A stretch of DNA of 19,046 nt, from positions 1 to 19,046 of the forward strand of contig JACAFS010000017.1 in NCBI GenBank assembly GCA_013378385.1. Direction: 5' to 3'. The number at the start of each line of letters is the position of its first letter. The first letter of the stretch is position 1. This document shows, piece after piece, positions 107-1,762 of this stretch. The stretch is from Nitrososphaerota archaeon. Its GTDB lineage: Archaea > Thermoproteota > Nitrososphaeria > Nitrososphaerales > UBA57. Made by a program: the position numbers and the translations under genes. The notes under the pieces were generated by a model. The model did no database searches and was not told the DNA's origin. It worked only from the letters and a program-made list of their open reading frames with translations.

Positions 107-1414
107 TTATTTTAGATCCCATTCTGCATTGATTTCTTTAACTACACCAGCGGCTATGGTTGTACCCATATCTCTTAGTGCGAATCGTCCCATTTGTGGG
201 TATTCAGTAAATGTCTCAAGACATAATGGTCTTAATGGTTGAATCTTTACAATTGCAGCATCTCCAGTTTTTAGCGCTTTAGGTTTTTCTTCTAAAACAC
301 CTCCAGTTCGTGCATCGAGTTTAGAAACTAATTCTGTTATAGTTGCAGCAGCTTGTGAAGTATGCGCATGTATAACAGGGGTATAGCCAGGGGCTATAGC
401 AGTAGGATGATGTACAACAATGATCTGTGCAGTAAATTCTTTAACAACTTTAGGTGGGTCATCAATCGGACCAATTACATCACCACGACGAATGTCCTTT
501 TTATCAACGCCACGAAGGTTGAATCCAATATTATCACCTGCAGAGGCTTGTTGCATCTCAACATGATGAGATTCAATAGATTTTACTTCAGCAGTTGCGT
601 TACTAGGCATGATAATGACCTTTTCTCCTACTTTGAATGTGCCAGTTTCGACTCTTCCGACTGGAACAGTTCCAACACCAGTAATAGAATAGACATCCTG
701 AAGTGGAAGTCTCAATGGTTTATCAACAGGGGGCGCTTCTACTTCGAAATCATCAAATGCTTGGTAAATAGTTTTACCGTCATACCAGTCAAGATTATCG
801 CCCTTATTGATGAGGTTATCGCCCTTCCATCCTGAAACAGGGATAATAGGAACCTTTGAGAGATCCCAACCAACGCCTTTTAATAATTTTTCAACTTCAA
901 CCTTTACTTCTTCATATCTTTCCTTTTTATAACCGACTTCGTTGGCATCCATTTTATTAACGGCAACAATCATTTGTTTTACGCCTAAAGTTTTGAGTAA
1001 GAAACAGTGTTCTCTAGATTGTCCGCCAGGTGCAATAGCAATTTCTGTTTCTCCGGGTTTACCAGAAACACAAAGAACAGCGGCATCTGCTTCAGAAGCG
1101 CCAGTAATCATGTTTTTAATAAAATCTCTGTGTCCAGGTGCATCAATAAGAGTGAAATCAAATTTTGGAGTTTCAAATTTCTTGAATGCTAAGTCAATAG
1201 TAACACCACGTTCTCGTTCGTCTTTCAGATTATCCATAACCCATGCGTACTTGAATGTATCACCTTTACCTGTTTTTTCAGATTCTTCTGCAAATTTGTC
1301 AATAGTTCGTTCATCAATGACTTTGAGGTCAACAAGAAGGTGACCAATTATAGTAGATTTACCTTGGTCTACGTGACCTGCTACAATTAAATTAAGATGG
1401 GGTTTGTCTGCCAA
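107..1414 (-). CDS. tuf: Archaeal translation elongation factor 1-alpha (EF-Tu/EF-1A family GTPase)
   Basis: 435-aa ORF with GTPase motifs GHVDQGKST (G1), DAPGH (G3), NKMD (G4) and SGWKG (G5), plus full domains II/III. The N-terminus xADKPHLNL is typical of aEF-1alpha. The only usable start is TTG at 1412-1414: an in-frame TAG lies four codons upstream and the next Met lies after G1. AGGT sits 7 nt upstream. Confidence 0.97.
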   Translation of the reverse strand: MADKPHLNLIVAGHVDQGKSTIIGHLLVDLKVIDERTIDKFAEESEKTGKGDTFKYAWVMDNLKDERERGVTIDLAFKKFETPKFDFTLIDAPGHRDFIKNMITGASEADAAVLCVSGKPGETEIAIAPGGQSREHCFLLKTLGVKQMIVAVNKMDANEVGYKKERYEEVKVEVEKLLKGVGWDLSKVPIIPVSGWKGDNLINKGDNLDWYDGKTIYQAFDDFEVEAPPVDKPLRLPLQDVYSITGVGTVPVGRVETGTFKVGEKVIIMPSNATAEVKSIESHHVEMQQASAGDNIGFNLRGVDKKDIRRGDVIGPIDDPPKVVKEFTAQIIVVHHPTAIAPGYTPVIHAHTSQAAATITELVSKLDARTGGVLEEKPKALKTGDAAIVKIQPLRPLCLETFTEYPQMGRFALRDMGTTIAAGVVKEINAEWDLK

Positions 1415-1525: not shown

Positions 1526-1542
1526 TGGTCCCGCGGGTCGGA

Positions 1543-1563
1543 CTTTCATGGATTTTTATCCAA
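1543..1563 (-). other. tRNA intron 4 (21 nt, between positions 59/60)
   Basis: Strict BHB. The central helix is T54 T55 C56 A57/TGAA, with bulges A58 A59|T and A G|T60. The inner hairpin is TGGAT-AAAA-ATCCA. The outer helix is the T-stem GTCGG/CCGAC, which is contiguous only once intron 3 is looped out or removed. Confidence 0.82.
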
Positions 1564-1569
1564 TTTGAA

Positions 1570-1588
1570 TTCGTCGAGCATAAGCCCT
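1570..1588 (-). other. tRNA intron 3 (19 nt, between positions 53/54)
   Basis: The insertion is A-GGGC-TTAT-GCTC-GACG-AA. The central helix is C48 G49 T50 C51/GACG, with bulges G52 G53|A and A A|T54. The inner hairpin is GGGC/GCTC with a TTAT loop. The outer helix is weak (BHL-like at the 3' site). Confidence 0.78.
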
Positions 1589-1604
1589 CCGACGACAGTC
1601 CGGT

Positions 1605-1649
1605 TCCTGTGTTGCTTGGCAAACTGTTCGGATAAGCCAAGGCTTAACC
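1605..1649 (-). other. tRNA intron 2 (45 nt, canonical 37/38 position)
   Basis: Strict BHB. The anticodon stem TCCGG/CCGGA is the outer helix and the central helix is CTGT(32-35)/ACAG. The bulges are A36 G37|G and G A|A38. The inner helix is GTT/AAC, extended by GC-TTGGC/GCCAA-GC. Confidence 0.9.
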
Positions 1650-1664
1650 CTACAGCCGGAAGCT

Positions 1665-1677
1665 TTTGGCAATATTT
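1665..1677 (-). other. tRNA intron 1 (13 nt, D-arm, between positions 22/23)
   Basis: The insertion AAATATTGCCAAA splits the D-stem 3' strand (G22 | A23 G24 C25). A 4-bp helix TGGT(17a-20)/GCCA is followed on each strand by 3 nt with the junction after the second (AG|A and AA|A). There is no inner helix, so this is a relaxed BHB. The exact junction is ambiguous by 1 nt because of A repeats. Confidence 0.7.
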
Positions 1678-1762
1678 CTACCAAGCTGAGCTACCGCGGG
1701 CCTGCGGAAAATCATAAGATAATACCGCGGGTCGCGAGACCGAAATAATAGAGTACAGAAAA

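Follow-up and report, generated by a model that had tools for sequence, protein, structure and literature searches.

Some archaeal tRNA introns are situated so close together that a second BHB can form only after one of them has been removed, as described with the iterative intron search of tRNAscan-SE 2.0 (PMC8450103). Later papers (PMC3728597, PMC3978253) mention nested archaeal introns with reference to Sugahara 2007 and Tocchini-Valentini 2009 (PNAS 106:20246), and ordered removal was shown by RT-PCR intermediates for the multi-intron pre-tRNAs of Cyanidioschyzon merolae (PMC3728597). The maximum number of introns per archaeal tRNA gene is given as three (PMC4033280, PMC8450103), and in Pyrobaculum islandicum tRNA-Pro(UGG) the introns are located at positions 25/26, 37/38 and 56/57 (Sugahara 2007/2008, as reported in PMC4090602 and PMC4033280). 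According to the text searched of a 2026 preprint, Asgard tRNA genes have up to five intervening sequences in one gene (bioRxiv 10.64898/2026.10.13.758758). EndA of the alpha/beta heterotetramer type has been assigned to Thaumarchaeota and Crenarchaeota and linked to relaxed splice motifs (PMC4090602, PMC5829648).

The tRNA-Tyr(GUA) gene described here is an extreme case of a known class, the multi-intron BHB-spliced archaeal tRNA genes. Its mechanism is not new in kind; since the machinery and the idea of stepwise removal were already established, the gain is one of degree and annotation and not of principle. A preliminary description of this DNA had considered an obligatory splicing order inside a T-loop not to be a described mechanism, which is wrong in general, as stepwise or nested removal has been published (PMC8450103, PMC3728597, PMC3978253).

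As they are summarized in the papers above, the multi-intron tRNA genes of Thermoproteales likewise have several BHB or relaxed introns per gene at non-canonical sites including the T-loop, together with an alpha/beta EndA; their published maximum is three introns, whereas there are four here and five in three relatives (G003, G013 and G024), and the present genes belong to Nitrososphaerales. As in the nested or close archaeal introns, to the extent that the citing papers describe them, one removal completes the BHB of the neighbour (here the outer helix of intron 4 goes from 0 to 5 bp), but in our case the core of the dependent intron exists before the first splicing, the dependence is partial, and the motifs lie side by side and are not nested. 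C. merolae also has several BHB introns per tRNA, including in the T-loop, and sequential removal was shown there by RT-PCR; unlike the present case it concerns a eukaryotic nucleus, the motifs fold independently, the order follows BHB stability and no micro-exon is described (PMC3728597). The Asgard genes resemble ours in having up to five inserts per gene, T-arm inserts with strong BHB and many members missed by standard annotation (PMC11291895; 10.64898/2026.10.13.758758), but they belong to a different phylum, and adjacent introns, micro-exons and the order of splicing are not mentioned in the preprint text searched. For tRNA genes of Thaumarchaeota and Crenarchaeota, the record thus rises from three published introns to four or five. 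The gene is also a natural example, clean and conserved, of the shortest exon allowed by the BHB rule, and a well-defined substrate for studying how EndA cleavage and RtcB ligation stay in step.

Gene layout, splicing machinery and splice motifs

The window (the whole stretch of 19,046 nucleotides that was analysed) is contig C9 of a 1.0-Mb assembly with 34% G+C and 96% completeness. An oxidase encoded next to the gene shares 91-97% identity with proteins from marine MAGs labelled Thaumarchaeota or Nitrososphaerales archaeon (UBA223, ATL, ALOHA). The features of the tRNA-Tyr gene are as follows.

1526-1700, minus strand: tRNA-Tyr(GUA) gene, 175 nt, five exons and four introns, CCA encoded at 1528-1526, read from the spliced product
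1700-1678, minus strand: exon 1
1677-1665, minus strand: intron 1, 13 nt, position 22/23, in the 3' strand of the D-stem
1664-1650, minus strand: exon 2
1649-1605, minus strand: intron 2, 45 nt, position 37/38 (canonical)
1604-1589, minus strand: exon 3
1588-1570, minus strand: intron 3, 19 nt, AGGGCTTATGCTCGACGAA, position 53/54
1569-1564, minus strand: micro-exon (exon 4), TTCAAA, 6 nt, T54-A59 of the T-loop
1563-1543, minus strand: intron 4, 21 nt, TTGGATAAAAATCCATGAAAG, position 59/60
1542-1526, minus strand: exon 5, CCA included
1537-1541, minus strand: 3' strand of the T-stem, CCGAC (C61-C65), partner of G49-G53 (1593-1589), read off the sequence

The preliminary description had given these coordinates and sequence statements correctly, including the separation of introns 3 and 4 by TTCAAA (T54-A59). 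When the four inserts were removed and the exons joined, ARAGORN recognized the resulting 77-mer as tRNA-Tyr(gta) with a perfect cloverleaf and a C1-G72 pair, so that in silico the canonical tRNA is restored by excision of all four introns. The C1-G72 pair is an archaeal feature. At the unspliced locus no tRNA was called by ARAGORN or Rfam, and since standard finders miss the gene, these genomes would seem to be without tRNA-Tyr. Spliced alignment found no second Tyr-like locus in the 96%-complete assembly (best score 120, next 76), and a search by anticodon stem for another tRNA-Tyr lacked specificity, with 82 matches. The EF-1alpha gene (window 107-1414, minus strand) starts 111 nt downstream of tRNA-Tyr on the same strand, an order that is kept in G003, G010 and G013.

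Two EndA paralogues are encoded in the genome, at C37, 7344-7919, and C34, 23848-24396. The alpha subunit (192 aa) matched its catalytic counterpart from Aeropyrum pernix over the full length (3P1Z_B, E 1e-40) and TIGR00324 with 94.7 bits; Tyr, His and Lys are conserved at the positions aligned to the catalytic triad, and the loop 'PKPKGTDFDAPL' is aligned to the A. pernix alpha loop 'EKPRGADFEGPL'. The second, beta-like subunit (183 aa) has an Ala in place of the catalytic His of M. jannaschii EndA. The RtcB ligase (563 bits) and an archaeal RNase P RNA are present as well. By these alignments the EndA of this genome is of the alpha/beta heterotetramer type with predicted broad specificity, and an EndA type able to cut relaxed motifs is encoded together with RtcB. 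Only 21-30 tRNA genes of the genome were visible to ARAGORN or Rfam, some of them misnamed (e.g. two 'Tyr(ata)' calls), and spliced alignment against the compact tRNAs of a relative found many other tRNA genes of this genome to be interrupted, by up to three introns. Other genes with three introns in the same assembly (G000) are the following.

C11, 6966-7079: tRNA-Lys (TTT)
C31, 5135-5271: tRNA gene with anticodon CAT
C34, 22538-22669: tRNA-Leu (CAA)

The introns were parsed by the BHB rule, in which each strand consists of an outer helix, a 4-nt central helix and a 3-nt bulge that is cut after its second base. The first two bases of the anticodon sit in the central helix, with which the rule is consistent (PMC4090602). 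A 4-bp central helix was found in the predicted register at all four introns, with 3-nt bulges and predicted cuts after the second bulge base, i.e. all four are of the archaeal BHB type; for the two T-arm inserts this agrees with the preliminary description. The full motif with an outer helix is found at intron 2 and, only after removal of intron 3, at intron 4, while introns 1 and 3 are relaxed. Intron 1 has a 4-bp central helix (TGGT/GCCA), an inner helix of 2 bp and an outer helix of 1 bp. Intron 2 has two bulges, a 4-bp central helix (CTGT/ACAG), an inner helix of 3 bp and an outer helix of 5 bp, which is the anticodon stem.

Intron 3 reads CGTC-GG/A-GGGC-TTAT-GCTC-GACG-AA/T (slashes mark the cuts). 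Its 4-bp central helix pairs C48-C51 (1594-1591) with GACG (1575-1572), its 4-bp inner hairpin is GGGC/GCTC (1587-1584 with 1579-1576), and an outer helix is lacking (0 bp) in every context, whether or not the other introns have been spliced out, which makes the motif a relaxed one. Intron 4 reads TTCA-AA/T-TGGAT-AAAA-ATCCA-TGAA-AG/T, with a 4-bp central helix of TTCA with TGAA (1548-1545) and a 5-bp inner hairpin TGGAT/ATCCA (1562-1558 with 1553-1549). The two motifs abut at T54, as had been pointed out: this is the base after the 3' cut of intron 3, and it can pair with A1545 in the TTCA/TGAA helix of intron 4. It was also correctly seen that the outer helix of intron 4 is the T-stem GTCGG/CCGAC, made contiguous only by excision or tight looping-out of intron 3; in silico it has 0 bp as long as intron 3 is present and 5 bp after its removal.

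A point missed by that description is that the T-stem and the central helix of intron 3 are mutually exclusive, because the latter takes C48, G49, T50 and C51, and both need G49-C51. The micro-exon TTCAAA consists of the 5' strand of the intron 4 central helix (TTCA) and two bulge bases (AA). Under the BHB rule, any exon that precedes a 5' splice site ends in four central-helix bases followed by two bulge bases, so six nt would be about the smallest exon that two BHB modules permit.

Conservation and covariation in Nitrososphaerales

tRNA-Tyr genes were found and parsed in 50 genomes of the same GTDB order, with introns at 9/10, 22/23, 30/31, 37/38, 53/54 and 59/60 and variants at 56-59. Both the 53/54 and 59/60 introns, with a 6-nt exon (TTCAAA, TTCAAT or TTCAAG), are present in 15 genomes of four families (f1, f3, f11, f19), namely the whole genus of the present genome (G000-G007), G010 and G013 of the same family, G016 (f3), G024 (f11), and G032, G044 and G053 (f19). 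In an alignment of 14 of these double-intron genes the tandem-hairpin structure is 95.7% paired, compared with 27-46% for slid controls. Eight pairs are changed on both sides, at 4 of 4 positions of the intron 3 inner helix and 4 of 5 of the intron 4 inner helix, and the covariation score was matched by no shuffle of 500. The central helices vary on the intron side alone, which is expected because the exon strand is fixed. TTCAA is invariant in the 14 aligned orthologues, position 59 being A, T or G, and both flanks are variable. The T54:A pair is missing in four of the 14 genes, the intron 3 central helix has just 3 bp in G007, and that of intron 4 is likewise 3 bp long in G024 and the f19 genomes.

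The orthologue comparison that had been suggested for intron co-occurrence gave the following pattern: the 53/54 intron never occurs without the 59/60 intron, both being present in 15/15 genomes, and the pattern for 53/54 alone was matched in 0/401 genomes of the order. This constant pairing is weak evidence, as the informative lineages are few and related. A strict whole-genome scan of G000 found the double T-arm layout in tRNA-Tyr only, apart from three chance-like matches (two in the reversed-genome control); it was used instead of a loose scan for double T-loop introns, which was swamped by chance (391 matches vs 270 in the control). Given the recurrence in 15 genomes and the compensatory changes in both inner helices, the double T-arm interruption is judged not to be due to chance. 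The layout is real and conserved, and the case is stronger than the preliminary description could know, since the structure is conserved and covarying and relatives have five introns.

The junction words predicted for an intermediate with G53 and T54 joined and intron 4 kept are GTCGTCGG+TTCAAATTGGAT, those for A59 and T60 joined and intron 3 kept are CGACGAATTCAAA+TCCGACCC, and the T-arm word predicted for the fully spliced form is GTCGTCGGTTCAAATCCGAC. A scan of metagenome contigs for spliced or half-spliced forms found the same T-stem exons in genomic genes only, whose T-loop had either a single intron or none.

In many families of the order, introns 30/31 and 37/38 of the relatives (L020, L024, L027-L032, L113-L129) leave a 7-nt exon, GCTGTAG, so micro-exons between close introns are common in this order. 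The outer helix of the 37/38 intron in these genes, the anticodon stem, goes from 1 to 6 bp solely after removal of the 30/31 intron, which is the same dependency as in the T-arm pair.

Predicted removal of the T-arm introns

The reading that we hold to be the probable one on balance is a joint one: the locus at 1526-1700 (minus strand) would be the single functional tRNA-Tyr(GUA) gene found in the genome of this uncultured marine thaumarchaeon of the deep sea, with four BHB-class introns and predicted splicing, a tandem-hairpin fold in the T-arm, stepwise removal by EndA and RtcB, and the path from intron 3 to intron 4 favoured. In the simplest picture, a fold backed by covariation, the T-arm of the primary transcript would form two tandem hairpins with AA between them. 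Each would have a 4-bp basal helix, a 3-nt bulge containing the 5' splice site and an inner hairpin, with the 3' splice site two bases beyond its foot; the 5' side would be the exon bases C48-G53 in the first hairpin and the whole micro-exon T54-A59 in the second. The alpha/beta EndA heterotetramer would cut one hairpin module and RtcB would presumably seal the ends before the other is processed. Intron 3, a relaxed motif, would borrow three T-stem bases, and the loss of intron 3 would let intron 4 use the T-stem as outer helix and become a full BHB. The 5' leader would be removed by RNase P.

Stepwise removal of the T-arm introns is plausible and on balance likely. One-at-a-time removal had been proposed because a simultaneous cut at all four sites would free the 6-nt exon, and this is a reasonable inference; the only pairing partner left to the freed 6-mer would be the excised intron 4. 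Both T-arm modules could nevertheless be cut before ligation, as nothing in the predicted RNA structure prevents double cutting, and loss of the 6-mer may possibly be avoided by steric exclusion of two enzymes on abutting motifs or by fast ligation. Removal of the 46 nt from 53/54 to 59/60 as one unit was rejected, as a one-base T-loop would remain and TTCAA is invariant between variable flanks.

Regarding the order, the one robust asymmetry lies in how good the motifs are: excision of intron 3 gives intron 4 its full motif, and excision of intron 4 makes no difference to that of intron 3. This makes intron 3 followed by intron 4 the tidier path, and judged by the motifs it is probably the most coherent route, favoured though not structurally enforced. 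The preliminary description went further and spoke of an obligatory order; in the strict form of this proposal, intron 4 would be unrecognised until intron 3 is excised and the T-stem forms. Such strictness would fit the gain of the outer helix from 0 to 5 bp and the high T-stem probability in half-spliced intermediates once intron 3 is removed (P = 0.77-0.97), and close introns of which one goes first are a published precedent (PMC8450103, PMC3978253); we consider it unlikely, however, since only the outer helix of intron 4 depends on intron 3 removal, and the central and inner helices of intron 4 do not require the T-stem and coexist with the intron 3 motif in the fold that covariation backs. 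Furthermore, the outer helix is <=2 bp at the 9/10, 22/23, 30/31 and 53/54 introns of these tRNA-Tyr genes, so a full one is evidently dispensable for the enzyme, and alpha/beta EndA with such a loop is reported to cut relaxed motifs (PMC4090602, PMC5829648). Sequential excision with intron 3 before intron 4 stays plausible and tidier by motif quality, and the obligatory part of the proposal is not supported, as both core motifs can form together.

The reverse order is a little harder to sustain. In this scheme the primary transcript would itself form the T-stem, from which intron 3 would loop out as a hairpin, the BHB of intron 4 would be presented, and intron 3 would be cut later from an enlarged T-loop. 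A local folding model (V-loop to T-stem) speaks for it: the T-stem conformer and the intron 3 central-helix conformer differ by 0.6-4 kcal/mol with the T-stem favoured in most orthologues, and the probability of the intron 4 central helix is 0.6-0.9 in the genus vs 0.0-0.25 for that of intron 3. C. merolae, moreover, removes the more stable BHB first (PMC3728597). The preference is reversed in the full-length ensemble of the G000 precursor at 37 °C, where the tandem-hairpin fraction is 0.27 vs 0.007 for the T-stem with the intron 4 central helix. In addition, a 19-nt hairpin opposite the 3' bulge would interrupt the continuity of the outer and central helices, and after removal of intron 4 the central helix of intron 3 has to compete with the closed T-stem (P = 0.00-0.20). 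Removal of intron 4 first is accordingly rated as quite unlikely.

At 10 °C the tandem-hairpin and T-stem states were all minor in the full-length ensemble, co-transcriptional (prefix) folds of the precursor gave no information on the order, and the half-spliced intermediates showed no consistent shift for intron 3. Folding energies were rejected as a basis for any order, the local and full-length models being opposite in sign and the intermediates without a robust shift. Of the folding with and without each intron that had been recommended, the gain of the intron 4 outer helix after intron 3 loss was borne out, but no robust order came from the energies.

The favoured route from intron 3 to intron 4 could also be imagined as imposed by the pair itself. 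That 53/54 and 59/60 form an obligate cooperative pair, each module supplying or withholding the outer helix of the other, and that the cell enforces intron 3 then intron 4 so that the 6-nt exon is never freed, would be a speculative and decidedly unlikely extension. Its structural version, in which the intron 4 central helix stacks on that of intron 3 and replaces the missing outer helix, with intron 3 spliceable only while intron 4 is present and the intron 4 motif full only after intron 3 is gone, is very improbable. The 3' bulge of intron 3 (AA/T54) does sit directly between the two central helices, and the strict co-occurrence (15/15 genomes, with 53/54 alone in 0/401) would be expected, but co-occurrence can be shared history among related, non-independent genomes, other introns of these genes work without an outer helix, and the T54:A pair is lost in 4/14 orthologues. 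If such an obligate, order-enforcing pair were real, a lineage with up to five introns per tRNA would be a natural system for measuring the coordination of EndA and RtcB. A decayed, non-functional gene or an assembly artefact with the inserts left unspliced is hardly credible, for although standard tools call no tRNA at the locus, the exons are invariant and the intron helices covary across independent assemblies, the gene is the sole Tyr candidate in a 96%-complete genome, and many other tRNA genes of this genome are interrupted too.

The probable 5' leader and the intron at 9/10

Upstream of exon 1, the following element was found.

1701-1741, minus strand: probable 5' leader, consisting of GGTCTCGCGA, then a copy of tRNA positions 1-9, a 21-nt BHB-like element and G1701

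The second copy of tRNA positions 1-9 in the leader is CCCGCGGTA (1731-1723), and the 21-nt BHB-like element is at 1722-1702. In G003, G010, G013 and G024 the equivalent leader element is a true 9/10 intron, while a 10-nt duplication (CCCGCGGTAG) has rendered the tRNA contiguous at its 5' end in most of the genus. The 4-bp helix of the relic covaries within the genus, with GCGG/CCGC here, ACGG/CCGT in G004 and GTGG/CCAC in G006. By comparison of these genes, the element at 1701-1741 is interpreted as the relic of a fifth intron at 9/10. The five-intron tRNA-Tyr genes, in which the introns are at 9/10, then 22/23 or 30/31, then 37/38, 53/54 and 59/60, are listed below.

L010 (G003), 1469-1666: tRNA-Tyr gene with five introns
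L012 (G013), 1443-1657: tRNA-Tyr gene with five introns
L021 (G024), 1396-1595: tRNA-Tyr gene with five introns

In the leaders of L010, L011, L012 and L021, GGTCCCGCG is located just upstream of tRNA position 1 and is the exact reverse complement of the tRNA 3' end CGCGGGACC. Pairing of GGTCCCGCG could hold the 9-nt first exon to the body of the tRNA during 9/10 splicing. Another tRNA-Tyr, at about 870-965 of L182 (metagenome contig JABAOF010089480.1), has a GATCGATC-rich repetitive insert between the anticodon stem and the T-stem, which may be a variable-region intron.
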